IMG/VR virus record: IMGVR_UViG_3300025087_000034
DNA: 64,000 nucleotides
From: a virus
Taxonomy: Duplodnaviria; Caudoviricetes
Reading direction: 5' to 3' (one strand)
The position numbers and the translations under genes were made by a program. Below are positions 8,028 to 58,481 of the stretch, piece by piece. Under the pieces are notes generated by a model. That model ran no database searches, was not told the origin of the DNA, and saw only the letters and a list, made by a program, of their open reading frames with translations. Position 1 is the stretch's first letter; the number at the start of each line of letters is the position of its first letter.

Positions 8028-8036
8028 AAAACGAAG

Positions 8037-20048: not shown

Positions 20049-20870
20049 TTAGTTGGACATCAATCTTAGAAGGCTATCAGCATAGATAGTCGCTGTTGTG
20101 GAGCTTTCATCTGTGAGACAAGGAGTAGTGTTTATTTCTAAAACATAGGCTTGTTTGTTATCTTTTGAGTAAACAATATCTACTGCTCCATAATGTAGCT
20201 CAAATTTTTGTAGTGTTAATATGGATACCCTATTTATTAGGTCGATAACCTTAGGATCACTATATGAAGGGGCTAGAAAACTATAGCCATTGTCATGATT
20301 TTTTATAATAGAAGACTCCGTCTTTGTTGTGACTTTTTTTTCTGATAGTTTTGCTATGTAATAATCCTCAATTCTCTTAGGATTTAGTATGTTACTAAAT
20401 ACATGAGCCCTGAATTCCCTTGTATTTTTTATAAACTTTATAAAATGAGTGGCCCCTTGTAGTTCGGCACTTCTAGCTTCTTTCATATTTTCGCAAAACC
20501 AGAATCCAGAGGCTTTCATATGATAGGTTGTTCTTCCTATAACAGGGAACTCTGCTTTAGATATTTCTTTTGCACTAAGCCATAGTATAGGAGCAGGGAT
20601 TCCCTTTGCTTTGAATCGTATTCTTGCTAGTCGTTTATTGGCACTAATTGCTATTTTAGAGGGATGGTTTATTATTGTAGGTTTACCTATAATAATAAAT
20701 ATGGAAGAATTTCCCACATTTACTATATAATCGAACTCCCTCCCTTTTATTCTTTTTCCATCAGGTATCCCCTGTAGAACTTCATTGTTTTTATCTGTTC
20801 CTTGTAAGGCAGTTACTAGGGCATTAGCAGACTGTGCTCCCTTTGCATTATGTAACACTAATATTTTCAT
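20049..20870 (-). CDS. ATP-grasp ligase (RimK/YheCD-like)
   Basis: EFRAHV, YGAVDIV..AYVLEINTTP (intact ExN metal motif), ISANKRLAR. Confidence 0.8.
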   Translation of the reverse strand: MKILVLHNAKGAQSANALVTALQGTDKNNEVLQGIPDGKRIKGREFDYIVNVGNSSIFIIIGKPTIINHPSKIAISANKRLARIRFKAKGIPAPILWLSAKEISKAEFPVIGRTTYHMKASGFWFCENMKEARSAELQGATHFIKFIKNTREFRAHVFSNILNPKRIEDYYIAKLSEKKVTTKTESSIIKNHDNGYSFLAPSYSDPKVIDLINRVSILTLQKFELHYGAVDIVYSKDNKQAYVLEINTTPCLTDESSTTATIYADSLLRLMSN

Positions 20871-23625: not shown

Positions 23626-23730
23626 AAAAAGAGGTACAGCTCTAGTACCTACCCAAACGTAGGAACCACGTTGTGGTATCGTGGTGTGTTCAGGACGTGC
23701 TTTTTACACCATATAGGTCTTTTTCCTATG
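23626..23730 (-). ncRNA. Candidate attenuator-like leader with five hairpins (two overlapping pairs), ending in a terminator-like stem
   Basis: Stems at 23713-23729, 23682-23711, 23666-23684, 23648-23663 and 23632-23650, followed on the minus strand by CTTTTT. Confidence 0.4.
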
Positions 23731-23774: not shown

Positions 23775-24848
23775 TCAATTTTGTGATTTCTGGCTTCTGG
23801 AGGCCACAACCGTTTGAATTCTATTTTCGAAATCCCTCTGTTTTTGTGTTATCGGAGCCACTTCCCTACCAAGTCTATCAGCCTGCCTAAGAATAAATAG
23901 TGGAAACAAACTCAAATTATTCATGTCTTCCAACTTTAGATTCACCCTCTCAACAAAGCGCATAACCGTAGAATCTTTCCATTTTCTATCATATTGATAC
24001 ATATGATTAGATACCAGATGATATATAATTTTTCCTTCGTCAGAGTTGTGCAATTCAAGTCTATTTAAGATATTGGCTACTAATTTAGATCCCAAGACTT
24101 CGTGTTTATGAAAGGTGGCCCCTTTTTCATTTTTCCCCTTTGTACCTGGTTTTCCAACATCGTGTACTAGAGCAGCAAATTTTATAGTGTAATCGTTCGT
24201 AGGGCACAAGTCACAGGCCATAAGACAATGGTCATATACAGTGAACTTGTGGTACAGTTCATTTTGTGTAATGCCAAAGCAATTAGATAATTCAGGGAGA
24301 ATAATATCTAGAGCCCCCACAAGCCTTAAAAACTCTATTCCTGTCGAGGGTTTTGTTGATTTTATTAGTCTCTTTAGTTCTCTCCATATAAATCTACCAG
24401 GAGTCTGTGCTAACTTTGCTACATTCTTACTTATAGAGAGGAGTAGCCTTTCTGATATAGAGAAACCGGTTTCCGCTTTCAAAGCTGCGGCTCTGATTAT
24501 AAGTTGTGGTTTCTCAGCTAACTCCTGTTCTGGTTCGTGTACTGTTGTTATTCTTTTTTTCTCTATATCTTTCATAGCTCCATAAGGGTCTATTATCTCC
24601 TTGGTTGAGGAGTTCAAGAGAAGGCCATCTAGTTTAAACGGCTGTATGGGTAGATACTTTGTTGGAGTACAGTGAGTTACGTGTTTTACTTTTATCCCTT
24701 TTGCAATTATTTGTTCCGAGGTGTCAAAAGAAACTAGGTAGACTTCTTCTGGAGTGAGGTCCATAATTAGCAAACATGCAGTGGTATAACTGAAATACAG
24801 GTTCTTGTTTCGGTATCCTTGTACCAGAGGTATAAGGCTATTTGTCAT
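23775..24848 (-). CDS. CCA-adding enzyme/poly(A) polymerase homolog with degenerate NTase head and intact HD domain
   Basis: DPYGAMKDI and PGRFIWRELKRL body motifs, VYDHC..ALVHDVGKP..FHKHE HD motifs; no GGxVRD, DxD or RRD. Confidence 0.8.
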   Translation of the reverse strand: MTNSLIPLVQGYRNKNLYFSYTTACLLIMDLTPEEVYLVSFDTSEQIIAKGIKVKHVTHCTPTKYLPIQPFKLDGLLLNSSTKEIIDPYGAMKDIEKKRITTVHEPEQELAEKPQLIIRAAALKAETGFSISERLLLSISKNVAKLAQTPGRFIWRELKRLIKSTKPSTGIEFLRLVGALDIILPELSNCFGITQNELYHKFTVYDHCLMACDLCPTNDYTIKFAALVHDVGKPGTKGKNEKGATFHKHEVLGSKLVANILNRLELHNSDEGKIIYHLVSNHMYQYDRKWKDSTVMRFVERVNLKLEDMNNLSLFPLFILRQADRLGREVAPITQKQRDFENRIQTVVASRSQKSQN

Positions 24849-25677
24849 CTTTGACTTTTTTCTCCGCTGATTTTAGGAGACCCCAAATAGCTTGGCGCGA
24901 AACTCTTCTAGGAGTAATACCTTCTGAAAAGACTACGTCCGCGATGTCTTCATTGTTGAGGCCTTGTTGATGAAGGACTAGTATAGAAGCCTTTTTCTTG
25001 CCCATATTTTCTCTTAGTTTTTCAACTAATTCATTTGCAGCAACATTATTTATTATGCTATCTTCACTAGTTATATGGTGTGACATTGCTGACTCGTCGT
25101 CTGGAACTTCTATAGTTATACTTTCGTAGGCAAGGCTGACTATTGTTTCATAAGTGGTCTTCGAGTTCTTTGCCAGCTTATCTACCATTGCCTTTATACA
25201 TCTTAACTTATCTAATGAACCGATAGAAAGTAGTAATTCTGCTTCGTGCTGCCAAACTCCTATTATTTCTCTAGGTTCTATATGACGACAGAATAATGTA
25301 TGTTCCTGTTCCAAGAGCCTAGTCATTCTATCTATATAGACCCTTGTTTTACTTATATAAATGGGGACAGATATAGATGTAGTATTTTTTATGCAGTATT
25401 CATATAAACGACCTTTTATTCTTGTTATAGCATGTATATCAAAATTGGATGAACGTGTAGGATCAAAATGCCTTGAAGCTTCTATAAGCCCTATTATTCC
25501 ACACATTACAAGATCTTCATACTCTACCCCGGGTCTTACGTATTTTTCAGCCATAGTTAATACCAATTTTATATATTTTTTTATATCCTTTTCCTCTTTA
25601 TTCTTTGGTATGTATCCATTAATTATATATGATATGTGTCTAAAAAATTCGGGTGACATTCTTTTGCTTCCAGACAT
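24838..25677 (-). CDS. Sigma70-family RNA polymerase sigma factor
   Basis: Region 2 EDLVMCGIIGLIEASRHFDPTRSSNF; region 4 HTH EDIAD...VSRQAI. Confidence 0.85.
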   Translation of the reverse strand: MSGSKRMSPEFFRHISYIINGYIPKNKEEKDIKKYIKLVLTMAEKYVRPGVEYEDLVMCGIIGLIEASRHFDPTRSSNFDIHAITRIKGRLYEYCIKNTTSISVPIYISKTRVYIDRMTRLLEQEHTLFCRHIEPREIIGVWQHEAELLLSIGSLDKLRCIKAMVDKLAKNSKTTYETIVSLAYESITIEVPDDESAMSHHITSEDSIINNVAANELVEKLRENMGKKKASILVLHQQGLNNEDIADVVFSEGITPRRVSRQAIWGLLKSAEKKVKDDK

Positions 25678-25689
25678 TTTGGATCCTAT

Positions 25690-26676
25690 TTAGTGTGGGG
25701 CAAATTTTCTGCCTATTTCTATATAACCATTTTCTTTTAAGTATTCTACTCCTTTTTTGGATATTATCCTCCCTCTGCTAGTTCTTATAAGTAGACCTTG
25801 CTGTATAAGATACGGTTCTGTGCTATTTTGTATAGTTTCGGGGGATTCATTTAGCAATATAGATGTTGTATCAAGTCCTAGTGGAACCCCTGTTTCATAC
25901 ATAGTTTTTAAATATTTTATGTCAGTATATAATAGCCCATTTTTGTCTATTCCTATAATATTAAAAACTGAGGAACATTCATCCATAGTTATAGTGTCTC
26001 TTTTTAACACCACAACAGCATCCCAAACACGATATAATAGGTTTACGACTATGCGAGGGACACCTCTTGCTCGAGAAGCGATAGCTTCCGCGGCATCTTG
26101 TGTTATCTGCATTTTATTTATTTCTGCATGTTTTATAGCTATTTGTGTAGTTTCTTCTAGGTTATAGGTTTTGAAGTGAAAACCCATTCTAAATCTGTCC
26201 CTAAAAGGCTTTGATAGTTTACCGGCTAGCGTTGTAGCTCCTATGATAGTAAATTGTGGAACCCACATTTCCCAGTTTTCACCTGTGTATTGATTTTTTG
26301 TAACAATATAGTGTTCTTCCATTGCTATACCAAGAGACTCTTGTCCATTTGTTGGAAGCCTGTGTATTTCGTCCAAAAATATTATTGTTGGTTTGATTTT
26401 ACTTACCTTTAATCCTTCTTTTGTGTATCCCTCTACAGACAGTTTTTCTATGAGCTCATACACATCTTTAGATGTTTTTAGGCTCTCCGACGGAACCTTC
26501 AACATCCCTGCTCCTTGGTGTATAGCAAGAGCCTTCGACATAGTGGTTTTTCCACATCCAGAGGCACCTGTAAATAGAGTATGCGGTATAGCCTCATTAT
26601 TTATTCTTGCTGCCTCACTGGCTATTGTTAATTGTAGCTTTATATTATTATTCCCTATTATATCATTAAATCTCAA
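25690..26676 (-). CDS. ruvB: Holliday junction branch-migration ATPase RuvB
   Basis: GASGCGKTT, FLDEIHRL, GATTLAGKLSKPFRDRF, ARGVPRI, EPYLIQQG..RTSRGR. Confidence 0.93.
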   Translation of the reverse strand: MRFNDIIGNNNIKLQLTIASEAARINNEAIPHTLFTGASGCGKTTMSKALAIHQGAGMLKVPSESLKTSKDVYELIEKLSVEGYTKEGLKVSKIKPTIIFLDEIHRLPTNGQESLGIAMEEHYIVTKNQYTGENWEMWVPQFTIIGATTLAGKLSKPFRDRFRMGFHFKTYNLEETTQIAIKHAEINKMQITQDAAEAIASRARGVPRIVVNLLYRVWDAVVVLKRDTITMDECSSVFNIIGIDKNGLLYTDIKYLKTMYETGVPLGLDTTSILLNESPETIQNSTEPYLIQQGLLIRTSRGRIISKKGVEYLKENGYIEIGRKFAPH

Positions 26677-26685: not shown

Positions 26686-27138
26686 CTACTGATTTTGAAC
26701 ATTAACATTTGGTACCCACTTTGGGGCCGTTTTAATTAAGCAGAGAATTATTTTTTCATCCGTTTGGTATCCCCCCACTATCTTAAATCCAGCAGACCCA
26801 AATGTTTTTATCGACCCTTCGTTATCCCTTCTTACCATGGCATATATTAAGGGAGTCTGCGAGGACTTTATTCCGGCTTCCACTAATGTCTTCGCTATGC
26901 CTTGTTTTCTTAGCAACTCGGTTACACATAGGTGTTTCAACTCGGTAATATTGTAAGATTGTTTATTTACTCTTATACATCCCACGACAATATTCTTGAA
27001 TGTCTCTATTATGTATTCGTTTGAATTGCTTAGAATTTCGTCTATATCGTGGACGGTGCCCAGTTGGTTGTATTTATTTATTAGGGCAGTTATTTGTACG
27101 GCTATTTTTGTATCTGTTAGTATTCGTCTAAAGCTCAC
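26686..27138 (-). CDS. GNAT-family acetyltransferase
   Basis: ELKHLCV..LRKQGIAKTL; NEGSIKTF..AGF. Confidence 0.75.
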   Translation of the reverse strand: MSFRRILTDTKIAVQITALINKYNQLGTVHDIDEILSNSNEYIIETFKNIVVGCIRVNKQSYNITELKHLCVTELLRKQGIAKTLVEAGIKSSQTPLIYAMVRRDNEGSIKTFGSAGFKIVGGYQTDEKIILCLIKTAPKWVPNVNVQNQ

Positions 27139-28138
27139 TTAAACTTCCTAGATTGATAAGGCCGGCTTCTTTTAGTAGATCTGCTGCTTTCTTAGCATTG
27201 TCATCGGAAATATTACCTATCAGATTTAACAAAGATTCCTTGGAAAACTTACGACCAAATCTCAATATATTTCTAAAGTAATCTGACACAGTAAACAAAA
27301 CCTCGCTATCTTGTAGGGAGGGTGAACACGTAGCATTCATAATAAATACCCTGCCATCCTTGTCAGATACCAAATCGACAGCGGCGAAATCTAATCTGTA
27401 TTTATTCTGTAAGATTTTTGCTATATTCATTATAGTAGTATCTATACCTTCTTTTACAAATTGTTGTTCCGACCATGCAACAATGGCTTTTGTAGTGTCT
27501 TCTGTTATGAGTCCTTTTTCAAACATTTCGGTCAAGGCAGTCTTTACTTCTTCGCTTCTATTTAACATAAGAGTCTCTTTGTGGGAGAGTAATTTCTTAG
27601 ATGAGGAGATTCTACCAAGTATATTGTTCCCCATTATATCATGGCCGACGAATACTCGGTCAAAACCAGCCCTGTCAATGTGGTTGCAAGCAAAGGTAGC
27701 AGAGGGAATAGTCGTAGCTTGATTATAGTCGGTAGCATTTTTTATAACAGCTAACAAATCTCCTGACTTGGCTAGTATATCGAATTTTGTGCTACCAAAA
27801 AAGTCTCTCATACTAGTGTAGTTTCTATTAACTATCTTTCTATAATTACCGGTTAGTAATTCATGTTGAGTGCTTACGTCTGTTAGAAAAGCCTGTCTAT
27901 GTGCAAGTAAGTCTGCCGAGCTTGGTAGATTGAACATCCTTGTTTCGTCTATTTCTACTCCCTCTGTATCCACCAATCCGTAAAAGATTATTTTAGTTTC
28001 CGGCTCTCGTATGATATTGCGAAGTTCCTCCGTTAATTCCGCGAAGGAACCAACGGCTATCTCGGCATCTACAGCCTGAGCTAAAAATATAGCAGAAGTG
28101 TCTACGGAGTGGGTACACCAAACTATTGTTGTTGACAT
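27128..28138 (-). CDS. Degenerate ATP-grasp-like protein
   Basis: FAAVDLV..GRVFIMNATCSPSL parallels the 20049 gene but ExN is replaced. Confidence 0.55.
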   Translation of the reverse strand: MSTTIVWCTHSVDTSAIFLAQAVDAEIAVGSFAELTEELRNIIREPETKIIFYGLVDTEGVEIDETRMFNLPSSADLLAHRQAFLTDVSTQHELLTGNYRKIVNRNYTSMRDFFGSTKFDILAKSGDLLAVIKNATDYNQATTIPSATFACNHIDRAGFDRVFVGHDIMGNNILGRISSSKKLLSHKETLMLNRSEEVKTALTEMFEKGLITEDTTKAIVAWSEQQFVKEGIDTTIMNIAKILQNKYRLDFAAVDLVSDKDGRVFIMNATCSPSLQDSEVLFTVSDYFRNILRFGRKFSKESLLNLIGNISDDNAKKAADLLKEAGLINLGSLSEL

Positions 28139-28148
28139 CTCTTTGCTC

Positions 28149-29378
28149 CTAAAGGGATTTTCCGGCTAACCAACCGCGTTTAAGGTCTAATTGAGAGGCC
28201 TTTAATGGTACTTGTTTCCTGCAGCATATCTTTATAAACCCATCTATTTCACTCTTATATAAAGGATAGGTAGACATTTGTTTTAGTTTATTGTGTATGG
28301 ATAAAACTAGGGAAGTTGGAACATCTGATATGGAAGAGTTATTTACTATATTTCGTACATATTCTGTATCCATACAATCAAAGTATCTCTGTATATTGTT
28401 CTTATTGTCAACTAGCATTAAAAAATCTTTATTGTAATTGTTGTCTTCATATTTTTTCCATATTTCTTCAACCACTGCTTTTGTGGTTGCTATGGTAACC
28501 AAAGCAAGTGTTGGATGCACAAACCAGATTCCACTTGGAACTCGCCATTCAAATTTTATGTCACCACTTCTCATTGCTCCAAAACAACCGTAGTCCTTTT
28601 CTTTTAGTCTGCGTTCCGAGGCTACTGGGGTATCCAATCTTACGAGAGGAAGAGCTACAAACTCGTCTAATATTCTTACTATTCTAGCTTGTATCATTTT
28701 ATCCGGATGCTTTGCCCCACCTTCTATGTTTGGCAGGCCTAAATGAATGTGCCCTCCTATGTAATAACGACGGTCCATGTCTGGGTGCCAGAAACTAGCC
28801 CCACCCACCCAATCATAGTTTTCTATTTTGTGCCCCTCTGTTTCAAATATATTTTTCATGTTTTCTACTAGTTGCTTAGAGTTGTTACTAGGAGGCGGCC
28901 TCATTTCAGCGCAAGGACCATCACTACCCAGAACAGCCTGTTTTTTAGCCGGGTCATCAAATTCATATCCTAGACCATCATCTCCATATTCTGCCGTACC
29001 GTCTTTATTAACTAGAATGAACTCTGGGTCACATCCTATCATTATTTTTTCAACTTGTTCAGAGACCCATATTTTTTTATATTTATCTATTTTTCCCATT
29101 ATTTTATTATAGGTTTTTGTGGTCACAAACCCTATAGTTTTAGTATTTTCCATCCCTTCATTAGCAAGGTCTTCATTAATAGCTTGACCTATTTTTAATT
29201 TTATGTTTTCTAATACGCCTTCTACTTTTATATATGTAGTATCTCCCCCTGATGGTCTATAATGTAATCGTGCTCTTTTAGAAAGTCTTATAAAATCATG
29301 CTCCAGTCTATTTCTTTCTGCTCGTAGATTCATTATTTCTGATGGTTTCAAAAATAATTGCATTTTTGTTTCCCGCAT
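28149..29378 (-). CDS. phiEco32-like COOH-NH2 ligase type 2
   Basis: IGCDPEFIL, GSDGPCAEMRP, GGHIHLG, FEWRVPSG. Confidence 0.85.
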   Translation of the reverse strand: MRETKMQLFLKPSEIMNLRAERNRLEHDFIRLSKRARLHYRPSGGDTTYIKVEGVLENIKLKIGQAINEDLANEGMENTKTIGFVTTKTYNKIMGKIDKYKKIWVSEQVEKIMIGCDPEFILVNKDGTAEYGDDGLGYEFDDPAKKQAVLGSDGPCAEMRPPPSNNSKQLVENMKNIFETEGHKIENYDWVGGASFWHPDMDRRYYIGGHIHLGLPNIEGGAKHPDKMIQARIVRILDEFVALPLVRLDTPVASERRLKEKDYGCFGAMRSGDIKFEWRVPSGIWFVHPTLALVTIATTKAVVEEIWKKYEDNNYNKDFLMLVDNKNNIQRYFDCMDTEYVRNIVNNSSISDVPTSLVLSIHNKLKQMSTYPLYKSEIDGFIKICCRKQVPLKASQLDLKRGWLAGKSL

Positions 29379-29395
29379 TATAAGTCTCCCAAAGA

Positions 29396-31255
29396 TTAGT
29401 TCATAGTTTTATTAGTTGGGGTCTTAAATACACTAAGATTCAATTCCTTAGCGGCACTAATTTCGTCTATGTCAAGGACGTCTGCTAGTTTATTCTCGTC
29501 AATTTGTCCAGTCTCTGCAAACAAATTTTGCTTAGATAACAAAGCAGACAAAACTAATCGTAGATTCCGCACCAATTTAGTTGCGGATTCCAACTTGATA
29601 TTTAATGATATTCTGTCTTCCGTATTTTTGAAGAAGGTCTTTTCCATACTGACTACTTTTATTTTGAGGTCTTCAACCTTCTTTTTCTCCTCAAGGGCTT
29701 CGTCTGCAGACACTGTTTCATATTCACTGGTGCCTTGTTCATAACCTGCACTATAACCATATGCGTATCCTTCGGGAAAGATCTTTTCATAGCAAGCAAC
29801 CAAAATCTTTAAGGCCTCTGTTTCATCTTCAATATCTACTAACCAGGACTTTAATAATTCTTTTACATCTACCTCGCCAATTTTCGCTATAGTAGCCTTA
29901 CCTTCAGTTTCTATAGCAACACTATGTAAACACTCTAATCCAAAGGCTATTCGTTCATCCCAAGAATAGGAGCACGAAGGGTCGTCTTCCACTATTTCAG
30001 TTTCTATTTCTATATCCTCGTAAACATCCTCATTGTCTGCACATATACCAGGCAAAGTTATCTCTAACAAACTTCCTTCCTCGTCTTTAGACTTATCTTC
30101 TATTGTGTTATTTCCACTAGGATAGGATGCATTAGTTTCGCTAGGAAAGGAGGTACTAAATTTTTCTGTAGCAGCCCTGGTATCCTTAGTTGCATTAGTT
30201 TTTACTCCATTGTCATATTTTGTGATAGTCTGTGGGGTACCCCTAGCACAGCTGTATATTTTTTCTACTTTTATTAGATCCTCTGGTATTGTTTTGGAGT
30301 TTACTTCTGTATCCAAATCCAGTATGAAGACTCCTGATTCTATAGAGGAGGGACTGCTTACTGTCTTACCATACCAAGTCTTACTAAGGTAGGGAAAGAC
30401 CTCCCCCACATTTCCTAGTTCTATTTTGGTACCCTCTTTAGTATTTACTATCATGCTAGTCTTGTATTCTCTATTACGCCAGCGGTCATAATTTTCCATG
30501 GCTGCTACTAAGTATTTTCTTTCCGATACCATAACCAAGCAACCTAATTCAGGGATATAGGCACCCTCCATGGGTTTTTGACCCTCCCTCAGGCAACCTA
30601 CTTTGGATGGGTTCCCTGTTGTATAGGACATTACGGCAAATTCCCCAATAAGTTCGTTGTGTGTAGTTTTTAAGTTTTCTATTGTAAAGTTGTTTTTATA
30701 TTCTGCTATGAGTTGGAAAATAATTTCACTATCTACTTTTCCTATTCTTTCGATTCCATGTTTTGCAAATAAGGCATCATCATTGGATATACTACCGTTA
30801 TGAACACCGACTATGGTATCTTGGGTTAATCTTTTGTTTTCTTTATCTAGATTTTTTGAAGTAATTATTACTGGGTGGTTGTTATGCGGATTATGTGGGT
30901 CCCCCTTCGTACTTTTTCTTACGTGTCCGAGGATTTGCTTTATTCTTTTCTCCCCAATTTTTCTAAACCACATATCCATAAACCAAGAAAAATTAGTTTC
31001 TTTATCCGTCGGATTTATATACTCGTCTCCCCAGCTACTAGGATCTCTAGCAAAGAAAGAGGAGGCTACTGGTTGTTTTACTATCAATGTTTTCTTATCT
31101 TCCCATAACAAAGCTACCCCAGTAGCGTCTGCTCCACGAGGTTCCATTGCTACCAAGGTTTCCAATAGTAGAAATCTTTGTATCAAGACCTCTACAATTG
31201 GGTCTATAGATTTTTCCGTATTGTTATATGAAAAAAGACCAAATATTCCGCACAT
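29396..31255 (-). CDS. Class II (Ntn) glutamine amidotransferase with acidic C-terminal extension
   Basis: MCGIFG, RGADATG, GHVRKST, NNHPV, VHNGSI, VDSEII. Confidence 0.9.
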   Translation of the reverse strand: MCGIFGLFSYNNTEKSIDPIVEVLIQRFLLLETLVAMEPRGADATGVALLWEDKKTLIVKQPVASSFFARDPSSWGDEYINPTDKETNFSWFMDMWFRKIGEKRIKQILGHVRKSTKGDPHNPHNNHPVIITSKNLDKENKRLTQDTIVGVHNGSISNDDALFAKHGIERIGKVDSEIIFQLIAEYKNNFTIENLKTTHNELIGEFAVMSYTTGNPSKVGCLREGQKPMEGAYIPELGCLVMVSERKYLVAAMENYDRWRNREYKTSMIVNTKEGTKIELGNVGEVFPYLSKTWYGKTVSSPSSIESGVFILDLDTEVNSKTIPEDLIKVEKIYSCARGTPQTITKYDNGVKTNATKDTRAATEKFSTSFPSETNASYPSGNNTIEDKSKDEEGSLLEITLPGICADNEDVYEDIEIETEIVEDDPSCSYSWDERIAFGLECLHSVAIETEGKATIAKIGEVDVKELLKSWLVDIEDETEALKILVACYEKIFPEGYAYGYSAGYEQGTSEYETVSADEALEEKKKVEDLKIKVVSMEKTFFKNTEDRISLNIKLESATKLVRNLRLVLSALLSKQNLFAETGQIDENKLADVLDIDEISAAKELNLSVFKTPTNKTMN

Positions 31256-31270
31256 GTACGAGGGACTCCT

Positions 31271-31945
31271 TTATCCGAGGTCCAAGGGGATTTCTGTAGA
31301 ATATTCTGGGCAAAAAGATTCGACCCAAAAAAATTCTTTTAATCCGTGGTTTGTAAATATGATATCACCTAGAGAAAGGGAAGTTGAATTTTTACGGTAT
31401 AGTTTAGCCCATATGCCTTCGCATTTTTGCCATTCTTCACAAAGTACGTCCTCTGTTCTGGATAGAGATAACAAAATATTAATTGGATCCTTTACAGAAT
31501 TAAGCCCCTCTTTGTCCCAAAAAAGTACGTAGGTATTTCTATACTTTTTTCTTAGAGTCGGCAGTATCATTTTTTTTATTTTTGCAAGGTCTTTCACTAT
31601 CGTGTAGTCTTTATATAGGGGTAAAATAGCCTCTATGTCGGTGTATTCTACTAGATAACATGTAAACTTTTTGTAGCTGACCTTTTGTAATTCTTCAGTC
31701 TTAATTGTCTGGTATACGTATTTATTGTGGGGAACTTTAGTGGCAATAGGTAAAGAATGAGGAAAGAATACCAATGTTTCAGATTGTTTTTTATAGTCCG
31801 TAGTAAAACCCAAAGGTGAAGCTATACAGGAGTTAGTCAGTGCACTATTATCATAGACAGCAATTATATCTATATTATTAAACGGAAATGGGTATGGATA
31901 TATTAGTTTGGTCCCTAATTTTAGATTTGGCAGTAGGGAAGGCAT
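31271..31945 (-). CDS. Hypothetical protein, possible YodL-like C-terminus
   Basis: TSLSLGDII..FFWVESF resembles the SLSVSDVV..YYVDSFGF pattern. Confidence 0.4.
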   Translation of the reverse strand: MPSLLPNLKLGTKLIYPYPFPFNNIDIIAVYDNSALTNSCIASPLGFTTDYKKQSETLVFFPHSLPIATKVPHNKYVYQTIKTEELQKVSYKKFTCYLVEYTDIEAILPLYKDYTIVKDLAKIKKMILPTLRKKYRNTYVLFWDKEGLNSVKDPINILLSLSRTEDVLCEEWQKCEGIWAKLYRKNSTSLSLGDIIFTNHGLKEFFWVESFCPEYSTEIPLDLG

Positions 31946-32787
31946 TTTTCAACCCAATCGGATGAATAGCCTTTGGTAGTCATAGGCTCAAGAATAAGGG
32001 CCTCATTTTTCTTTAGGAGGATTTCTTGAGCATCTAAGAATATATGCCCCGCTTTATTAGTGTCTATGCCTATAATAGTGTCATTTAATAGTTGTTCATT
32101 GTTTGATATGAAGACTAAGTCCTGCCATTTCTTTGTTTTTATTGTCAGATTATCCGATTTTTTTGCGATAAATAGTCTAATTGTGTCTGTAGCAAACACT
32201 ATATAAAAATAGTTACCATGACATATAGAGGCAGCCTTCTTAAAGGCTTCTTTTATAGGTGCTCCTTCTACAATGAACTTTCCTGTCAAAGCGAGAACCA
32301 AATCAACTTTGCTGGGTAATGTTTGTAGGTTTATACGATATTGCTTGGCTATTTTTTCTACGGATTTAATATTACCCATGCCAAACCCTATCATATTACC
32401 CATTTTTATAGGGGCTGTTTCTTTGTGGGTTTCTTTTGTTAGTATTCCGGCTATCAATGCAGTTGGGTTAATTATATCATTGTTTATTATATTTAAGAAC
32501 TTGAGGTTATCTACTAGTTTTCCTTTAGAAAGAATTTCTTTTATAGTAATTAGTCCTGTTTTGTATGGTCTGACAGAGTTGGCATTTTGAAAGATGGAAT
32601 TAGTACTATGGAGAGTAGAATTAAATACAGATAAGGAGCATAGTGGATTTTCCATGCCAAGTAAAGCAATGTTAAAGAAGGTTTTTATCACAGTTTGCTT
32701 ATCAGTAGCTGGGGAAGATTGAACAGCATGGGTATATTCTTTGGGCTTAGACAAACAAATGAGTAGGGTGGTGTTATGGTCGTACAT
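31921..32787 (-). CDS. Probable inactive class II amidotransferase-like (Ntn) paralog
   Basis: IGFGMGNIK / SKVDLV / EAFKKAASICHGNY follow GAT-II spacing; no N-terminal Cys, no HNG. Confidence 0.4.
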   Translation of the reverse strand: MYDHNTTLLICLSKPKEYTHAVQSSPATDKQTVIKTFFNIALLGMENPLCSLSVFNSTLHSTNSIFQNANSVRPYKTGLITIKEILSKGKLVDNLKFLNIINNDIINPTALIAGILTKETHKETAPIKMGNMIGFGMGNIKSVEKIAKQYRINLQTLPSKVDLVLALTGKFIVEGAPIKEAFKKAASICHGNYFYIVFATDTIRLFIAKKSDNLTIKTKKWQDLVFISNNEQLLNDTIIGIDTNKAGHIFLDAQEILLKKNEALILEPMTTKGYSSDWVEKCLPYCQI

Positions 32788-34378
32788 ATGTACCTGACTC
32801 TTTATCCCAAATTACGCCGTTGGTTGTTTGTAAATATAAAATCCCAAGTTTTACTTGTTCTGTTTTAGCTCCTATAATTTCACTAACAGTGCTTATCCAC
32901 TCTAGTTCGTTAGAACACTCATCAATAAGGGCGGTATCTATTGTTTCTGAGATTTTATCAAGAACTATCTTACTTATTTTGTTTTTGTTCTTCACTAAAT
33001 CTTTTTCTATCTTGTCCCAAGAGTCGCCTTCACTTAACCTATACGAACAAGGTCGCTCGGCTAATTCTAGTAGTATGTTAAAGGAATTTCCGTGTCCTCT
33101 AAGTTCCGGCTTTAATAGATTAACCATCTCTTTTGCTTGTAATCTAACCTTTTCCACGTAGGGTTCAAAGTTCTTGGTATTACTATGTCTAGGTCCCCCA
33201 TAGTCTCCATAATTGTTTAAAAGTTTTTCTTGTATTTCACTTGCCTCATCCATATAGTCTGTATCGCCACTATGTAAAATACCATAGGTACTGAAAGACA
33301 CGGCCTTTATAAGTAGCGAATATACAAGGAGGGATATTGCTGTTATAGCGGAAGGGGACAGCAGGCCATCACAGAAGCGGGCTTCTAGGTGTAGTTTTTC
33401 TATAGCTTCTTTGGAATCAAATTCTATATTGGAGTAGTTTATAAAAGAATATCTGCCCTTGGTGCCATCTGACTCGCTTATTTCTTTTATAATAGATTTC
33501 ATATTTCTACGTAGAGCGGAAAACTTTAGTATTGTGTGTCTGAATTTTGCCCATCTAGTAAGAGTATCCTTGGAAGTACCCGCAGAGGAGATCCAAACTA
33601 GGGCATTATGGTAACGTCTGATAAGTTGGTGAAAGTTTGTCAATATAATTTCCGGCATAGCTCTTTCGAGTTCTATTATATTATGTTTATTATTGACTCC
33701 CTTTTTGTATATTGGTATCACTTCCCCCCTATCGTTGAAACCAATATTATAGTATCCTGATAAAAGATGTATGTGGGTGCTAGCTCTTTCATCTACGTAA
33801 GCACCCTTAGCTATACATTTGTCTATAATATTCTTTGTTTGTTCTAATAACATATCGTAGCTTACTCTCCTACCCACCGTTGTAACTTCAACGCCTCCGT
33901 CTCCCTTTAAGCTGCCATCTTTTACGATTTGGAATACTCCGTTATCGCCAATCTTAAGAAGGTTTTCCGATGGAGTCAGTTCCTTAACAAGCTTAGCTCG
34001 TACATGGGAGGGATTTTTATTCTCGTCCAGAAAGAGGGCACATTTGGTACAGTCCCTTATGGCATCCTTGCATGTAAAGCAAGGAGAGTAAAATTCCACG
34101 CAGTATATTCCTGGGCATTCATATTTTTGTCTTAGAGTACAATGCTTATAGGAAGCACATTTGGTGAAACACTTGGAGTTTTCTTTTTGGGGATGAGAGC
34201 ACGGGCATAGAAAGCTCTTACCATTACAGTTGCCTGTTTTTTCTAGCAGGTTTAGTTCGTGTTCGAGCCCTATTTTTAGAGTAGCTTCCAATATTCTTTT
34301 CCAATAATTAGCTTCCTCCGATAGCAAACAGGGCCTGTTCTTTTTCTTTGTGAATACTAACTTCTGATTTTGTTTCAT
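32774..34378 (-). CDS. Putative amidoligase (glutamine-synthetase/glutamate-cysteine-ligase-like fold) with Cys-rich insert
   Basis: KIGLEHE, KDGSL..GGVEVTT, ASTHIHL, RYSFIN, LEARF. Confidence 0.8.
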   Translation of the reverse strand: MKQNQKLVFTKKKNRPCLLSEEANYWKRILEATLKIGLEHELNLLEKTGNCNGKSFLCPCSHPQKENSKCFTKCASYKHCTLRQKYECPGIYCVEFYSPCFTCKDAIRDCTKCALFLDENKNPSHVRAKLVKELTPSENLLKIGDNGVFQIVKDGSLKGDGGVEVTTVGRRVSYDMLLEQTKNIIDKCIAKGAYVDERASTHIHLLSGYYNIGFNDRGEVIPIYKKGVNNKHNIIELERAMPEIILTNFHQLIRRYHNALVWISSAGTSKDTLTRWAKFRHTILKFSALRRNMKSIIKEISESDGTKGRYSFINYSNIEFDSKEAIEKLHLEARFCDGLLSPSAITAISLLVYSLLIKAVSFSTYGILHSGDTDYMDEASEIQEKLLNNYGDYGGPRHSNTKNFEPYVEKVRLQAKEMVNLLKPELRGHGNSFNILLELAERPCSYRLSEGDSWDKIEKDLVKNKNKISKIVLDKISETIDTALIDECSNELEWISTVSEIIGAKTEQVKLGILYLQTTNGVIWDKESGTYVRP

Positions 34379-35432
34379 GTTTCAACCATTTAAGTATGAG
34401 TGGTGCCTCGTGCTCCTCGGGTTTATAACTTATGTTTTGCATATATTCACCAGCTAGGTTGCCAATATTTTCTTCTATTTTTTTCATTTCTTCTTTCATC
34501 TTATTCTTATTTCTACTGTAGTACATATCTTGTACTTTAGTTGTATCTGGTAATTTATATAGTTTAGCTATGTAATCTTTGTCAGATATTTTTTCTGTTC
34601 TTTTCCAAGCAAGGCTTTCTTTATAAACTGTGTTTAGGATGTTTTCCATAAGGACAAAAGAAGTTGTTAGTAGGCTTAGTGCAAGTCGTGGGGACTTCAA
34701 ATAATATCCCCCTGGGGTTCTATACTCCAAAGTTCTTCTACTTAAGCGGTAGTCTCCTAACTTGCCATAATCTTTTGACAATCTTCTACTATCATTGCTA
34801 TCTATAAAAGCACTTGGAATACCAATATAGTAATCTAATATGGACACCATATTCTTTATTATTTTATCAGTGTTATTTGGGGCAAATAGAAGAAGGTCTT
34901 CAGGAAGACCAAGGTGAACGTGAAAACCACATACACGATTATACAGACAAGACCCCGCAATGGGAAACAAGCCTTTCGGTAGTGTAGTATAAATTTTTAA
35001 TACTTGGTTTTTTAGATTTTCCAGGTGCTGCTCCGGAGATAAAGCAAAATCTGGACGTAATTCCCCTAATTCGCCATCACACCCTATTTGGCTGTCGAAT
35101 GGAAGGACGGAAGAGGCATCTACTAATGTTCCTTTACGATTTACAATAAAGAATTCAGGGTCGGACCCTATTGTTAGATCGTGCTTCTCTATATATATGT
35201 TTTTTCCTGGATTGTATATTATAGGGGATAATACGTTGACAAATATATTCTTATTCCCGTGAGAGACAATATCTTCTTTTATAGCAGGGCAAACTAATAA
35301 ACTAAATTTTCCAACCGCGGTATCAAATATTAACCAATCACCATGGTCGATACCATAAGATAGCATTATTTCTCTTGGTACTCTAACCTGGTGCATTGCG
35401 CATGAAGTAGACGGAACAGCAGTAAGAAACAT
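34308..35432 (-). CDS. Second phiEco32-like COOH-NH2 ligase type 2, with a small N-terminal domain
   Basis: TIGSDPEFFI, GCDGELGELRP, GFHVHLG, LEYRTPGG. Confidence 0.85.
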   Translation of the reverse strand: MFLTAVPSTSCAMHQVRVPREIMLSYGIDHGDWLIFDTAVGKFSLLVCPAIKEDIVSHGNKNIFVNVLSPIIYNPGKNIYIEKHDLTIGSDPEFFIVNRKGTLVDASSVLPFDSQIGCDGELGELRPDFALSPEQHLENLKNQVLKIYTTLPKGLFPIAGSCLYNRVCGFHVHLGLPEDLLLFAPNNTDKIIKNMVSILDYYIGIPSAFIDSNDSRRLSKDYGKLGDYRLSRRTLEYRTPGGYYLKSPRLALSLLTTSFVLMENILNTVYKESLAWKRTEKISDKDYIAKLYKLPDTTKVQDMYYSRNKNKMKEEMKKIEENIGNLAGEYMQNISYKPEEHEAPLILKWLKHETKSEVSIHKEKEQALFAIGGS

Positions 35433-35449: not shown

Positions 35450-36820
35450 TTAATGATAACGAATTAACATATTTTTCTGTTCGTAAGCAGCTTTCCTTTT
35501 CCAGAATTGATTTTTAAACATTTTTATATTGTCTACATAATCGTAGACAATAGCATTTTCTTTTCCTTCCAACGGTCTCTCAATCCTGCCAGTTGACTGA
35601 ACTATTAGGCTAGAACTCTTTAGGGGGGCGGCGAGAAATAAGCGACTTGAAGGTTTATAATTAAAACCCTCAGCTAGAAGGCCATAGGTTACTATAAGTA
35701 TTTTTGTTTCTCCAGAGAGAAACCCTTCTATCTGTTTATCCCTAATCTTATTTGTCTGTTTGGAATGCGGAGAAGCAACAGTTATCCCCAAACTATTAAA
35801 GATATCTGTTAGAATATCTATATGTTTAGTGGTAACAGTTAATACCATACAGGTATTTTCTAGACCATACTCATATAGTATATCTGATACTATGAGATTG
35901 TTTCTTCTTTCATTAGTAGAAATATATTCTATTAGATCTGCATAGTTGGCTCCCCATAACTTCTTCGTAGCGGTAATTTCAGTATAGTGTACTAAGACAG
36001 AAGAATTTATTATTCTATTTGCATCTACTGCATCCTTATGCTTTATTGTTGTTACTACTGGTCCTATGTAATTAAACATCAAAGGATCTAATCCATCTTC
36101 TCTATACGGGGTAGCTGTAATTCCATATAAAAATCTAGGAGAAAATCCACAGATAACCTTTAAGAAAGTAGAGGAAGGAACATGTTGGCATTCATCAACA
36201 AGTATTAATCCAAAAGAATATTTAAGTTCTTTTATTAGTTCTTTGTTACGAACTAGTGTGGGAACCATACCTATAGTAAGTATATCCCCAAGTGCCTTCT
36301 TACTCTCTCCTATAATTCCTATTTTTCCTACTTCTATAAATTTCTCTATCTCTTTCTTAACTTGTTTAACAAGGGGCCCCCTATGAGTTAGCCATAGTGT
36401 GGGTAACCCTAGTCTGGCTATGACTTCCAAAGCCATTACAGTTTTTCCACTTCCTGCGGGGGCTATGCCAATACCCTGTCGGTGGGAAACTAAACTCTCA
36501 ACCCAGGGTATTTGTATAGGTTCCAACTTTATGTTATTATTTATTAATCTTTTACTGAAATTGGCGGTAGTGTCTTCTATAACATTTATACTATTAGTTA
36601 TTTCTGTAGCCCTATAGAGATAGCCTCTAGGAACTATTATGCCTTCGGTTATTTCTGAATATTGTTTTATGAATTTTGGTATACCGAAGGTTCGTCTGCC
36701 AAATTGTATAGCAGATTTCCACGCAGGATTCGGGAAGGTTAGGTCTTTTCTAAATTGGTCTAGTTCAGTTTTTGATATGTTTGTTATAGTTAAGTCTTTG
36801 TCAATTTTGACATCCATCAA
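35450..36820 (-). CDS. Superfamily II DNA/RNA helicase (UvsW/SSL2-like)
   Basis: APAGSGKT, DECQH, TATPYREDG, EGFN, QSTGRIER. Confidence 0.92.
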   Translation of the reverse strand: MMDVKIDKDLTITNISKTELDQFRKDLTFPNPAWKSAIQFGRRTFGIPKFIKQYSEITEGIIVPRGYLYRATEITNSINVIEDTTANFSKRLINNNIKLEPIQIPWVESLVSHRQGIGIAPAGSGKTVMALEVIARLGLPTLWLTHRGPLVKQVKKEIEKFIEVGKIGIIGESKKALGDILTIGMVPTLVRNKELIKELKYSFGLILVDECQHVPSSTFLKVICGFSPRFLYGITATPYREDGLDPLMFNYIGPVVTTIKHKDAVDANRIINSSVLVHYTEITATKKLWGANYADLIEYISTNERRNNLIVSDILYEYGLENTCMVLTVTTKHIDILTDIFNSLGITVASPHSKQTNKIRDKQIEGFLSGETKILIVTYGLLAEGFNYKPSSRLFLAAPLKSSSLIVQSTGRIERPLEGKENAIVYDYVDNIKMFKNQFWKRKAAYEQKNMLIRYH

Positions 36821-53332: not shown

Positions 53333-53340
53333 ATTGCCTC

Positions 53341-54711: not shown

Positions 54712-55665
54712 TTAAAGACCCCACTCTTTGTATAGATTATATGTCTTTCTACAACACTTATTAAATAACTTCATAGTTCCCTCACTCACTTCTTTAGAAA
54801 TATACTTCTTCCATAGGTTAGAGGCTGTCTTAAAATCTCCATTGTTTATAATGTCTACTACGGTTTGTTCTGGAATATTGTTGACCAAACCTTGTAAGCG
54901 TTTTTCTCTAACAATATCTACGGCATCCTCCGCCATAGAATAGACCAATTCCACTAATTTTGGGGATTGGGCCCAGTAATTACTTAGAGTACGATATTCT
55001 ACTCCATAACTAGTTGGGCGATGACAGCCGGCCTTTCCGTATAGTTTGCGTCTGTTTATAGAATCTTCTGAGTGGTCCATAATTGTAAATGGGATTCCTG
55101 CTACTATATCTAATGCTTTTATCACAGCTACCTTTCCATATGGATCCAATAAAAAGTCATTGCCTGAATCTTCTACATACCCTATGTGAAGATGCCCCCC
55201 ACAACTTCTAAAAGTCCTTTCTGTGGCACCAATAGGAACCTCGTTTCTCGTAAGTTTCCATGCATCATAGTCGGGCTCACACCCAAACTCACGGCACCTG
55301 GGGTCTAACAATTCAGATTCTGGAAACTCCGTCGAACCTATAGGGAGAACCAACAATCCTTCTGGAAGAGATTTGAACGCCTCTGCCATCGTATCTCTGA
55401 TTGCTTTCACAAAGTCTTGCACATTGTCCACGGGTGGCGTGGCGAATTCTAAGGCTACGTTATCATGAGTAACATTGCCTCCATTGGATAATATAGTTGG
55501 GTTATGCTTACTTCCCGATATAAACTTTATAGCCGATAAAAGATTGTTTTCCGCATCTCTAAGAAATAGCTCTGTGTCTGTTCCTACGGTTATATGAGAC
55601 ATATTCAATCCTTTTTCAAAAGTTGGAGTAGGTTCTTTTGCCAAATATCTCCAAACCTGGAGCAT
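54712..55665 (-). CDS. Third phiEco32-like COOH-NH2 ligase type 2
   Basis: TVGTDTELFL, DNVALEF, FGCEPDY, CGGHLHIG, YGVEYRTLSN. Confidence 0.88.
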   Translation of the reverse strand: MLQVWRYLAKEPTPTFEKGLNMSHITVGTDTELFLRDAENNLLSAIKFISGSKHNPTILSNGGNVTHDNVALEFATPPVDNVQDFVKAIRDTMAEAFKSLPEGLLVLPIGSTEFPESELLDPRCREFGCEPDYDAWKLTRNEVPIGATERTFRSCGGHLHIGYVEDSGNDFLLDPYGKVAVIKALDIVAGIPFTIMDHSEDSINRRKLYGKAGCHRPTSYGVEYRTLSNYWAQSPKLVELVYSMAEDAVDIVREKRLQGLVNNIPEQTVVDIINNGDFKTASNLWKKYISKEVSEGTMKLFNKCCRKTYNLYKEWGL

Positions 55666-56890: not shown

Positions 56891-57831
56891 CGATAGTTCC
56901 CTATTGTTCTTATACTCAGATTACCATCATACCTTAAACATACCCCATTCGAAACCATAGTCGTAGTGGCCTCTCCGGCGTAGCGCCTACAACTTATTAT
57001 TATATTGTTGTTTTCTATGAAAGCTTCATAAAAATCAGAATGTTGAGAATGCACAAGGTATCCTAATCTAGTAAAGGTCTCAAAATCTACCACTATTACA
57101 TTTTTAGGATGTCCTACACAATAACTATCTATAACTGAAAATTCAGAGAACCTGGCAAAATTATCAGTGACGTCGCCCAGATAATCCCTATAAATTTGTG
57201 TAAAACCACTAGTAAAATGGCACAAAGTTGTAATTCTATATAGAGTACCCCTATTTATTAGTATATGGGTATAGTTTCCCGAAGAGTTGGATAATGTTTG
57301 TACGGATACCACCGTTTCTTCAGGAGCTAGTATGGATTCCATCTTTTGTTGTCGCAAGAGAGCTATATAGACAGTTTTGTCACCATGCTTACCTAAACAT
57401 ACACTGACAAAAGAAATCAAAGCGGAGCCATCCTCTAGAAATTCTGTTAAAAAACAGAGGGGCTTATCTTTTATAGTATTTACAGCTAGTATCTTAGCCT
57501 CCGGGTGTGCCGGATGAATACCAAGGTGGGAGGTACAATTCAACTGCTTACTATTGGAAAAGCCAGCGTCAAATACATAGGTATTGTTTTGATTATTAAG
57601 TAGAAACAAAGTGTGGCCCCTCGGTTCACTTAGTATAAAGGCTAGGCCACAAAGACCACCATATCCTATTCGACCCGCGTAGTTGGTTTCTCTAGACAGA
57701 GATTTATATACAGTGCCTATGTCAGGCATATAGAATAAGGCTATATAGTCGTCAGGTTTCTGTATAGTATTATGTATGCTAGAATAAGGAAAGGGGCATA
57801 TTCCATTAGGTCTTATACGGCCAGCTGGCAT
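56884..57831 (-). CDS. Hypothetical protein
   Basis: 315-aa beta-rich ORF. Confidence 0.55.
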   Translation of the reverse strand: MPAGRIRPNGICPFPYSSIHNTIQKPDDYIALFYMPDIGTVYKSLSRETNYAGRIGYGGLCGLAFILSEPRGHTLFLLNNQNNTYVFDAGFSNSKQLNCTSHLGIHPAHPEAKILAVNTIKDKPLCFLTEFLEDGSALISFVSVCLGKHGDKTVYIALLRQQKMESILAPEETVVSVQTLSNSSGNYTHILINRGTLYRITTLCHFTSGFTQIYRDYLGDVTDNFARFSEFSVIDSYCVGHPKNVIVVDFETFTRLGYLVHSQHSDFYEAFIENNNIIISCRRYAGEATTTMVSNGVCLRYDGNLSIRTIGNYRC

Positions 57832-58481
57832 TTTAGTGTTCCTTGATTAAACAGGTAATTTTTTATACATTGTCGATAATATATAACGCCACGAGAGGTT
57901 TCCCTCATCCATTCTGGGTGGTATTGAACTGCCAGCCCATTTATAGAGGGATAATAAACAACTTCTAATTCCTTTTCCGGGTTTCCTACGTCTTTTCTAG
58001 ATTCAAGCTCATAGATAGAAGATCTGTTTACGTCTGTCCAGGCTAACTCTATAGCACCCTTTACTAGAGGGTGTCCAAACATTTGATGGTGACAACTTGT
58101 CACTTCGAGAGAAGCCCCCTCCGATGTTACTATTTTGTGATAACCTCCTTCGTGACCAGTGGTATGTTGATATAAAAATCCTCCAGCCATAGCGGTGAGA
58201 TATTGTCCACCTCTACAAATACCCGCTATGGGTATATTGTATTTCCTAGCAAAATGATAAACGAACCCGTCTATGTCATCTCTATATTTAGAGTCGTATG
58301 TGTGGGGGTTTTTCTTTTGACCATATAAAGAGGGACTTATGTCTGCCCCCCCAGTCAACACCACTAGTCCAATATTTTTGGCATTTGATTCTATCCCCCC
58401 GACGTATGTAGTCATTTCCCCAAATACTCTATGAGGCAGGTAGTCTGAATGGGAACCTATAACCAATACTTTTTTTGACAT
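57813..58481 (-). CDS. Class I glutamine amidotransferase-like / peptidase C26 (gamma-glutamyl hydrolase)
   Basis: LTGGADI, GICRGGQ (Cys), SCHHQ, QYHPE (His-Glu). Confidence 0.9.
   Translation of the reverse strand: MSKKVLVIGSHSDYLPHRVFGEMTTYVGGIESNAKNIGLVVLTGGADISPSLYGQKKNPHTYDSKYRDDIDGFVYHFARKYNIPIAGICRGGQYLTAMAGGFLYQHTTGHEGGYHKIVTSEGASLEVTSCHHQMFGHPLVKGAIELAWTDVNRSSIYELESRKDVGNPEKELEVVYYPSINGLAVQYHPEWMRETSRGVIYYRQCIKNYLFNQGTLKCQLAV

Follow-up and report, generated by a model that had tools for sequence, protein, structure and literature searches.

A conserved eight-gene amide-ligase block in giant phages, an expanded form of a known but uncharacterised phage cassette

Results

Layout and packing of the block

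The window analysed here is a whole stretch of 64,000 nucleotides of DNA from a virus of the Caudoviricetes (Duplodnaviria; IMG/VR record IMGVR_UViG_3300025087_000034). Eight abutting minus-strand genes, lettered A to H in reading order, fill its positions 26686-35432 and encode mainly ligases and glutamine amidotransferases. This block is an expanded form of the four-gene cassette of phiEco32/LUZ24-type phages, which consists of a ligase, an amidoligase, a class II glutamine amidotransferase (GAT-II) and an ATP-grasp protein. Within this known but uncharacterised kind of cassette, the novelty lies in a ligase family that no domain library models, in pseudoenzyme copies and in clade-wide conservation. 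A first-pass annotation, made from the sequence alone, had described a contiguous and mostly coupled run of eight genes; all eight are found where it had put them, and its family assignments hold in Pfam, hidden Markov model (HMM) and structure comparisons. The genes, with lengths in amino acids (aa), and the two modules of B are as follows.

34308..35432, minus strand: A, type-2 COOH-NH2 ligase, paralog 1 (374 aa); PF14395 at E 1.4e-20, 74 bits; phrog_3815 at 2.2e-14
32774..34378, minus strand: B, amidoligase without a Pfam model (534 aa); glutamine-synthetase/glutamate-cysteine-ligase fold
34025..34240, minus strand: cysteine-rich insert of B (residues 47-118), between the ExE strand and the DGSL motif
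32777..32983, minus strand: C-terminal winged helix of B (residues 466-534); VIA Z 9.2, root-mean-square deviation 1.9 A over 60 residues to 1xd7
31921..32787, minus strand: C, short GAT-II paralog (288 aa), assigned by ortholog HMM and Atlas structure
31271..31945, minus strand: D, protein without assigned family (224 aa), in a variable slot between the two GAT genes
29396..31255, minus strand: E, GAT-II with an intact N-terminal nucleophile (619 aa); MCGIFG start; GATase_6 at 6.1e-9, GATase_7 at 1.6e-5
28149..29378, minus strand: F, type-2 COOH-NH2 ligase, paralog 2 (409 aa); PF14395 at 5.1e-24, 85.3 bits
27128..28138, minus strand: G, RimK-like ATP-grasp fold with a non-canonical site (336 aa), assigned by Atlas features and structure
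26686..27138, minus strand: H, GNAT acyltransferase (150 aa); Acetyltransf_1 at 2.7e-7, 31.3 bits against a cut-off of 20.7

Pfam directly assigns four of the eight genes (A, E, F and H). For B, C, D and G no match above threshold was found in Pfam, PHROG or NCBIfam, and other routes were used. Membrane segments are predicted in none of the block members.

The block lies in the middle of a packed run of 12 genes between 36820 and 23775, from a helicase gene to an HD gene, in which the intergenic spacing ranges from -71 to +17 nt. The flanks of the block are formed by the following genes.

35450..36820, minus strand: superfamily-2 helicase, 17 nt upstream of A; ResIII at 7.1e-17, Helicase_C, DEAD
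23775..26676, minus strand: RuvB-like AAA+ protein, sigma-70-family factor and HD/CCA-related protein, downstream flank in the same packed run

The downstream proteins match RuvB_N (1.5e-26), Sigma70_r2 (5.9e-10) and HD with PolyA_pol_RNAbd, and follow the block with gaps of 9, 12 and -11 nt; the first long gap, of 152 nt, comes only after the HD gene. All window genes from about 18.4 kb onward lie on the minus strand, and the window is AT-rich throughout (G+C 34-40% in 2-kb bins, with the block at about 0.36-0.37). The block is probably transcribed together with these replication and transcription genes. A terminator-like hairpin with a T-run lies directly after the HD gene at 23632-23650 (minus strand), and a gene-free stretch of 250 nt with G+C-rich hairpins (36826-37075) lies directly before the helicase gene. 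These two bracket the 12-gene run and may mark the limits of a transcription unit.

Conservation among giant phages

The synteny comparison that the first-pass annotation had proposed found the same gene order in 20 related metagenomic loci, eight from assemblies and 12 from IMG/VR (two of the latter near-identical), on contigs of up to 320 kb. The whole run reads helicase, A, B, C, (D), E, F, G, (H), (unknown), RuvB, sigma, HD. All 20 blocks are flanked by the helicase on one side and by RuvB/sigma/HD on the other, with the helicase preceding A either directly or, in locus L003, after one small open reading frame (ORF). Because the B proteins of these loci share only 33-53% identity with that of the window, the retention of order goes far beyond chance. 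Three of the IMG/VR records are complete according to CheckV (268,764, 295,848 and 297,725 bp), and the longest contig carrying the window's own G protein measures 258,514 bp. A megablast search with the block DNA against 50,697 phage records gave zero matches. Furthermore, no paper pairing giant phages with an amidoligase was found, and a 2021 survey of jumbo phages is silent on such a cluster.

The relatives also vary at the edges of the block. Between the GNAT gene and RuvB, an extra gene without a Pfam family occurs in L001, L002, L005 and L007-L018, encoding 230-261 aa or, in one sub-lineage, 383-417 aa; the window, L003, L004 and L031-L033 are without it. The upstream helicase has 627-833 aa in some relatives (812-833 aa in the ORFs of L010 and L012) and 452-486 aa elsewhere. 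In L004 the helicase (7023-8906) has weak intein/Hint matches and is probably interrupted by an intein.

B, an amidoligase family missed by domain libraries

B defines a new glutamine-synthetase-fold ligase family that current domain libraries miss. None of its 63 metagenomic homologs has a Pfam domain on record, and a HMMER scan of 1.84 billion representatives returned 276 B-family clusters (defined at 50% identity) at E<=1e-3. Against the Pfam model PF12224 (Amidoligase_2; cut-off 22 bits), B gives no match even at E<=10, and within its family two of 28 orthologs reach only E 0.035 and one of ten relatives without the cysteine insert scores 15.3 bits. A tblastn search with B against the 50,697 phage records gave zero matches. 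The B profile against PDB sequences returned only noise, with E of at least 0.23 and no sequence-level match to a solved structure. Profile alignments by hhalign with the amidoligase of Klebsiella phage Klyazma (E 0.12) and with the F family (E 0.045) are not significant, though in both cases the aligned stretch includes the catalytic motifs.

The family is placed by its structure. The AlphaFold2 (AF2) model, built on an alignment of 28 homologs, has a mean predicted local distance difference test (pLDDT) score of 85.9 and is confident except in the cysteine stretch. In VIA comparisons, residues 26-460 match the YbdK-type ligase 1tt4 (Z 19.4) and plant glutamate-cysteine ligase (GCL) 2gwc (Z 19.3), followed by PafA 4bjr (Z 16.4), Dop (Z 16.3) and glutamine synthetases (Z 12-14); Foldseek agrees, finding glutamine synthetase at E 1e-4. 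Viral matches in BFVD are frequently annotated 'Amidoligase enzyme' and include a protein of the LUZ24-like phage tf. The strand-borne ExE, HxH and ExR motifs of the carboxylate-amine ligase fold are present, and K35, E39, E41, H202, H204, E332 and R334 are invariant in the 28-homolog alignment.

Two modules are attached to this core. The insert carries eight invariant cysteines in the same alignment (C60, C70, C74, C80, C88, C93, C100 and C103), with a median of 12 cysteines per ortholog and a pLDDT of 47-56. Relatives of about 430 aa, which make up many of the 276 clusters, are without the insert and keep the remainder. The winged helix also matches a Zalpha domain (VIA Z 8.6) and is acidic in nearly all of the 28 orthologs (median net charge -7.5), which speaks against direct nucleic-acid binding. 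A complex prediction for B and C scored 0.01 and is evidence for neither side.

On two unrelated short contigs (L034:3-3115 and L035:544-2117), an insert-less B relative is followed directly by an MC-starting (MCG-type) GAT-II, and on one of them a second amidoligase copy precedes, forming a tandem pair. This suggests that the pairing of amidoligase and GAT-II is wider than this phage clade. An IMG/VR scan with insert-less B relatives returned only the loci already known.

Type-2 ligases and GAT-II proteins

A and F score far above the PF14395 gathering cut-off of 25 bits and keep all motifs common to both paralog sets across 17 orthologs (DPE, DG..E.RP, H.H, D, RR and E.R). The AF2 model of F has a pLDDT of 89.8, and its best PDB matches are the YbdK-type 1tt4 and 1r8g (E 2e-6 to 2e-5; template modelling [TM] score 0.43-0.50).

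E exceeds the GATase_6 cut-off with 36.4 bits against 27, and its motifs MCG, RG.DATG, GH.RK, NHP, G.HNG and VDSE are conserved in 17 orthologs. The GAT domain spans about residues 1-260. Residues 300-619 are poorly conserved and acidic, the whole protein has a net charge of -29, and a conserved domain was sought in the C-terminal half and not found.

C is a homolog of the short GAT-II at the same position in relatives. It has no Pfam match and was found at E 1.7e-10 by an HMM built from five positional orthologs; its Atlas model retains the fold, with a TM score of 0.70 to GATase_6 clusters. The protein starts MYDHN, and Cys1 together with the RG.DSTG, GHTR, NNHP, GVHNG and CDSE motifs is replaced; C is a homolog but not a predicted enzyme, catalytically dead in this phage. 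It shares only 16-18% identity with its nearest orthologs. A GATase_6 score persists in the orthologs at this position, including those of the closest relatives (with a B 48-52% identical to that of the window). Among the 18 loci compared, the short GAT starts MC[GSA] in 13; its cysteine is also replaced in L007/L008, L012 and L014, which amounts to at least two losses on the B tree. The C frame is intact, at 288 codons and normal length, in a genome of 36% G+C. Such an open, full-length frame, unlike diverged neutral AT-rich sequence, points to a retained non-catalytic protein and not a pseudogene.

D has no family in Pfam, PHROGs or NCBIfam, and its Atlas model has a pLDDT of 0.28. Relatives have either nothing in this slot or an ORF of up to 520 aa, and seven positional counterparts share no Pfam family, no invariant residue except the start methionine and no conserved C-terminus.

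ATP-grasp proteins and the GNAT

A word-based homolog search for G gave two relatives only, and for this reason its fold assignment draws on the Atlas search, in which language-model features classify it as ATP-grasp (0.96) and the structure matches RimK/LysX clusters at TM scores of 0.60-0.65. The Mg-binding E-x-N reads N-A-T in G. Among 17 G orthologs, ten have E-x-N and seven N-x-T/I/V, and the sub-lineage overall reads N/S-x-T/I/V. The seven loci with non-canonical G form one side of a split in the B tree with a support of 100/100.

The further ATP-grasp gene that the first-pass annotation had placed at 20049 is confirmed as RimK-like.

20049..20870, minus strand: second ATP-grasp gene (273 aa), canonical; phrog_2599 at 3.1e-29; LEIN, that is, E-x-N intact

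Its NCBIfam matches to MptN/RimK families are below cut-off, and the Pfam ATP-grasp scores of both G and this gene are sub-threshold. All five checkable genomes with non-canonical G (the window, L003, L013, L015 and L018) carry a canonical ATP-grasp gene a few kb downstream. Strong orthologs of the 20049 gene (E <= 5e-48) occur only in records with non-canonical G; the records with canonical G have none, and two of them have weak extra ATP-grasp genes. As far as the sequences go, the 20049 gene is tied to the block system by this co-occurrence, which reflects one evolutionary event, and it is likely the working ATP-grasp enzyme of the system in this sub-lineage. A repeated compensation, in which non-canonical G and an extra ATP-grasp gene would have arisen together several times, was rejected given the single B-tree split and the two canonical-G records with weak extras. 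In the C-terminal tails of the neighbouring pentapeptide-repeat proteins, an acidic end of RimK type was sought and did not appear.

H has, in addition to its Pfam match, a weak match to RimI (3.1e-5). Its CoA motif R-K-Q-G-I-A, of the R/Q-x-x-G-x-A/G type, is conserved across 15 orthologs.

The loss of the C active site, the missing Mg-binding ExN of G and the variability or absence of D in relatives are what would be expected if the block were a pile of redundant or decaying paralogs with no coherent pathway. This is very unlikely in our judgement, because order and content are conserved down to 33% B identity, the residues invariant in their families are all retained in A, B, E, F and H, and even the dead C, at so low an identity to its orthologs, is still an intact frame of 288 codons.

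A second amide-enzyme locus and further window genes

Enzymes of the same kinds are encoded at a second place in the window.

52763-58481, minus strand: second amide-enzyme locus, with a third ligase, a C26 amidotransferase, three ORFs without assigned function (315, 159 and 272 aa) and NodB
54712..55665, minus strand: third type-2 COOH-NH2 ligase (317 aa); PF14395 at 1.1e-13, 51.4 bits; phrog_3815 at 2.2e-59
57813..58481, minus strand: Peptidase C26/class-I glutamine amidotransferase (222 aa); Peptidase_C26 at 5.5e-16, GATase at 7.7e-8, phrog_7218 at 1.6e-38

The third ligase has orthologs at E 7e-62 to 5e-90 in all five related records searched, and in all five a C26 amidotransferase lies 2-4 kb from it. 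A NodB-type polysaccharide deacetylase (1.1e-25) adjoins the locus.

This deacetylase bears on the idea that the enzymes act in the cytoplasm to alter cell-wall precursors, either the stem peptide of peptidoglycan or some comparable part of the envelope, for instance as a barrier to superinfection. ATP-dependent amide ligases and a glutamine amidotransferase take part in making and amidating the stem peptide, and the presence of NodB beside the second locus agrees with such a role. For phiEco32, a proposal of this type is reported in PMC10580990, where it is credited to Iyer et al. 2009. However, the NodB gene is 19 kb away from the block, which sits among replication and transcription genes and not among lysis or envelope genes. 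Furthermore, the block has no Mur-ligase, MurT/GatD, lipid-carrier or membrane-associated member, and all its products are predicted to be soluble. We regard a cell-wall target as improbable.

Elsewhere in the window, a Thy1/ThyX thymidylate-synthase homolog is encoded at 14839-15534 (plus strand; 1.1e-40). Two proteins made of CapR/DUF4379 treble-clef zinc-finger arrays lie at 3379-4641 and 8037-9422 (both plus strand), and HNH endonucleases lie at 12241-13056 and 16976-17704; these genes are of the homing-endonuclease type. A single tRNA-Tyr gene (GTA anticodon) is located at 45692-45778 (minus strand).

Base hypermodification, in which a group derived from an amino acid is placed on phage DNA or on a nucleotide precursor, would fit a block that is always embedded between helicase/single-stranded DNA-binding protein and RuvB, a winged helix with DNA binders among its structural neighbours, and the Thy1/ThyX gene. 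This reading has very little probability in our view, as the winged helix is strongly acidic and a hydroxymethylase, base kinase or glycosylase-type transferase was not seen next to the block. In addition, we know of no member of these ligase families that acts on DNA.

Discussion

The first-pass annotation took the many distinct ligases as a sign of a multi-step product. The enzymes probably do serve several steps, but the count was too high within the block, as C has lost Cys1 and its GAT-II motifs and G has lost ExN, and at the same time too low for the window, where one more type-2 ligase, the third, and a C26 amidotransferase are encoded at the second locus. The predicted catalysts within the run are A, B, E, F and H, which keep their catalytic residues, and the 20049 gene is likewise intact. 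We consider it fairly probable that these enzymes work in the cytoplasm as a pathway with several steps of amide ligation, amidation and acylation. Going by the chemistry of their families, A, B and F would each activate a carboxylate with ATP, giving an acyl-phosphate that is then joined to an amine; the ATP-grasp enzyme, too, would form one amide bond by way of an acyl-phosphate. E would split glutamine and hand the ammonia to one of the ligases, so that a free carboxylate becomes a carboxamide. A RimK-type ATP-grasp enzyme would add an amino acid, most likely glutamate, and in this phage the step probably falls to the canonical 20049 copy because G is without ExN. H would acylate a free amine and so cap it. 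Together these steps would yield a short peptide-like moiety of the gamma-glutamyl type that is amidated and N-acylated, with C, and probably G, kept as non-catalytic copies that may be scaffolds or regulators. Nothing here decides between a peptide, a polymer and a tag.

What the moiety is attached to can be stated only tentatively. We slightly favour its being built on or moved to a protein over a free molecule, because B has two likely recognition modules, the multi-cysteine insert and the acidic winged helix, and because the closest affinities of the ATP-grasp protein and the GNAT are to RimK and RimI, which modify proteins. The presence of PafA and Dop among the best structural matches of B counts in the same direction. 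For the explanation as a whole, including this slight lean to a protein acceptor, we see about even chances.

Several points weigh against it. For the block members, as for the smaller cassettes, no activity, substrate or product has been observed. The top structural matches of the B model are small-molecule ligases (Z 19.4 and 19.3), slightly above PafA. Inspection of the block, whose gaps are at most 17 nt, showed no tag-like small gene. The partner ligase of E is not assignable, and with the C-terminal half of E unconserved, no acceptor-binding domain can be named there. Finally, a sigma-70 promoter scan was at chance level (69 against 66.5), which leaves gene packing as the basis for co-transcription.

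Some of these points lead to a different product, a free small molecule. The block might make an N-acylated, amidated di- or tripeptide (similar to N-acetylglutaminylglutamine amide, or a relative of glutathione), or else an amine, for instance a polyamine, that is gamma-glutamylated or acylated. Such a compound would serve to alter the nitrogen or redox pools of the host or to neutralise the packaged DNA. In its favour, the enzymes that B and F resemble most in structure are small-molecule ligases, namely YbdK/1tt4, plant GCL 2gwc and gamma-glutamylmethylamide synthetase, and the second locus has a C26-type member of the gamma-glutamyl hydrolase family. In E. coli, PuuA (glutamine-synthetase fold), PuuD (C26) and SpeG (GNAT) act on polyamines, a set of enzymes that also counts for this alternative. 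Furthermore, the enzyme set parallels Ngg/AsnO (PMC8070244), and LUZ24-type cassettes add a gamma-glutamylcyclotransferase-like (GGCT-like) gene (PMC3890496). On the other hand, the conserved cysteine insert and winged helix of B are unusual for a small-molecule ligase, the block contains no exporter or regulator, and the RimK-like and RimI-like affinities point weakly to proteins. A free small molecule is a possible product, though a doubtful one.

A bolder version of the protein-directed pathway is a phage protein-tagging system. B would act in it as a PafA-like ligase whose target is held by the acidic winged helix and the zinc-type insert, and the assembly and completion of a short peptide tag on proteins of host or phage would fall to the remaining ligases, the amidotransferase and the GNAT. 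Proteins tagged in this way might be directed to the phage's own ClpP and Clp-ATPase pair, or the tag might retune the flanking transcription and replication machinery. We think this unlikely. The window does encode a Clp-type unfoldase at 6096-8027 (plus strand; AAA_2 at 5.9e-41, ClpB_D2-small at 6.4e-20) and, about 3 kb from it, a ClpP protease at 10904-11548 (plus strand; 4.3e-76). An ATP-dependent protease pair of a phage's own is unusual and may be relevant to protein tagging.

Whichever acceptor is used, the cassette of ligase, amidoligase, GAT-II and ATP-grasp protein occurs in many phages and has been without an assigned product since its description in 2009. The lineage studied here has a larger and sharply defined version with a fixed gene order. 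Some relatives differ only in the nucleophile of the short GAT and in whether the in-block ATP-grasp protein is canonical, and these natural 'knock-outs' make the question experimentally approachable. The block also brings to light a new amidoligase family (276 clusters) that is habitually paired with GAT-II. Should a protein prove to be the acceptor, the block would stand for a new type of post-translational modification driven by a phage.

Comparison with known systems

Among cellular enzymes, the YbdK-type ligases (1r8g, 1tt4) and plant GCL (2gwc) are the best structural matches of both B and F. Their acidic, histidine and arginine strand-borne motifs recur in B and F at 12-13% identity, and the accessory domains differ. 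With PafA and Dop (PDB 4bjr, 9cku, 4b0r), B shares the fold over about 275 residues at about 10% identity, and its extra C-terminal structure could hold a protein partner, as a point of comparison with these enzymes. However, the PafA/Dop alignments (model range 23-462) contain nothing that corresponds to the winged helix or the cysteine insert, YbdK and GCL outscore PafA/Dop for B, and no Pup-like gene was seen in the block. Through their matches to RimK-like viral clusters and to PHROG 2599 (labelled S6 glutaminyl transferase), the 20049 gene and G resemble the RimK alpha-L-glutamate ligases that modify S6; they differ in a sub-threshold Pfam RimK score (E 0.015) and in the lack of ExN in G.

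In Sinorhizobium meliloti and Pseudomonas aeruginosa (PA3459-PA3460), the Ngg/AsnO pathway leads to N-acetylglutaminylglutamine amide, a dipeptide that is N-acetylated and C-amidated, through the joint work of an acetyltransferase, an enzyme that forms peptide bonds with ATP and an amidotransferase that depends on glutamine (PMC8070244). The block has the same combination of GNAT, ATP-grasp and GAT-II, a likeness drawn from enzyme classes alone, and three extra ligases without a counterpart there. ATP-grasp and GNAT are fused in Ngg and adjacent in the block (G-H). AsnO activates the carboxylate with an asparagine-synthetase domain, whereas the block has stand-alone GAT-II proteins beside glutamine-synthetase-fold ligases.

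The closest relatives of the block are the smaller phage cassettes, and the kinship to phiEco32/LUZ24-type clusters proposed by the first-pass annotation is borne out in the two checked. LUZ24-like phage UFV-P2 encodes COOH-NH2_lig (ORF21), Amidoligase_2 (ORF23), GAT-II (ORF25), ATP-grasp (ORF28) and a GGCT-like protein (ORF29), followed by primase/helicase (PMC3890496), and phage tf has a similar cassette (PMC3517423). In Klyazma, orf049-060 include two amidotransferases, a ligase, an amidoligase and an ATP-grasp protein beside primase/helicase and a sigma factor. The function of the cassette was still called unknown in 2023, so that, as had been annotated, the smaller clusters are without an assigned product (PMC10580990). 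The window block has the same four enzyme classes, in the order of UFV-P2 ORF21-31 and next to a helicase; in Klyazma the same families are clustered in a different order, and its ligase is only 29% identical to A. All three lie in an early replication region beside a helicase, with a sigma factor nearby also in Klyazma. In contrast to the phiEco32/LUZ24 cassette, the type-2 ligase and GAT-II are each duplicated within the window block, a GNAT is added and GGCT is absent, and one GAT copy and one ATP-grasp copy are non-canonical. Its amidoligase, unlike theirs, falls outside PF12224 and carries the cysteine insert and winged helix. The genomes differ as well, with 260-300 kb for those carrying the window-type block and 45-80 kb for the phiEco32/LUZ24 type.

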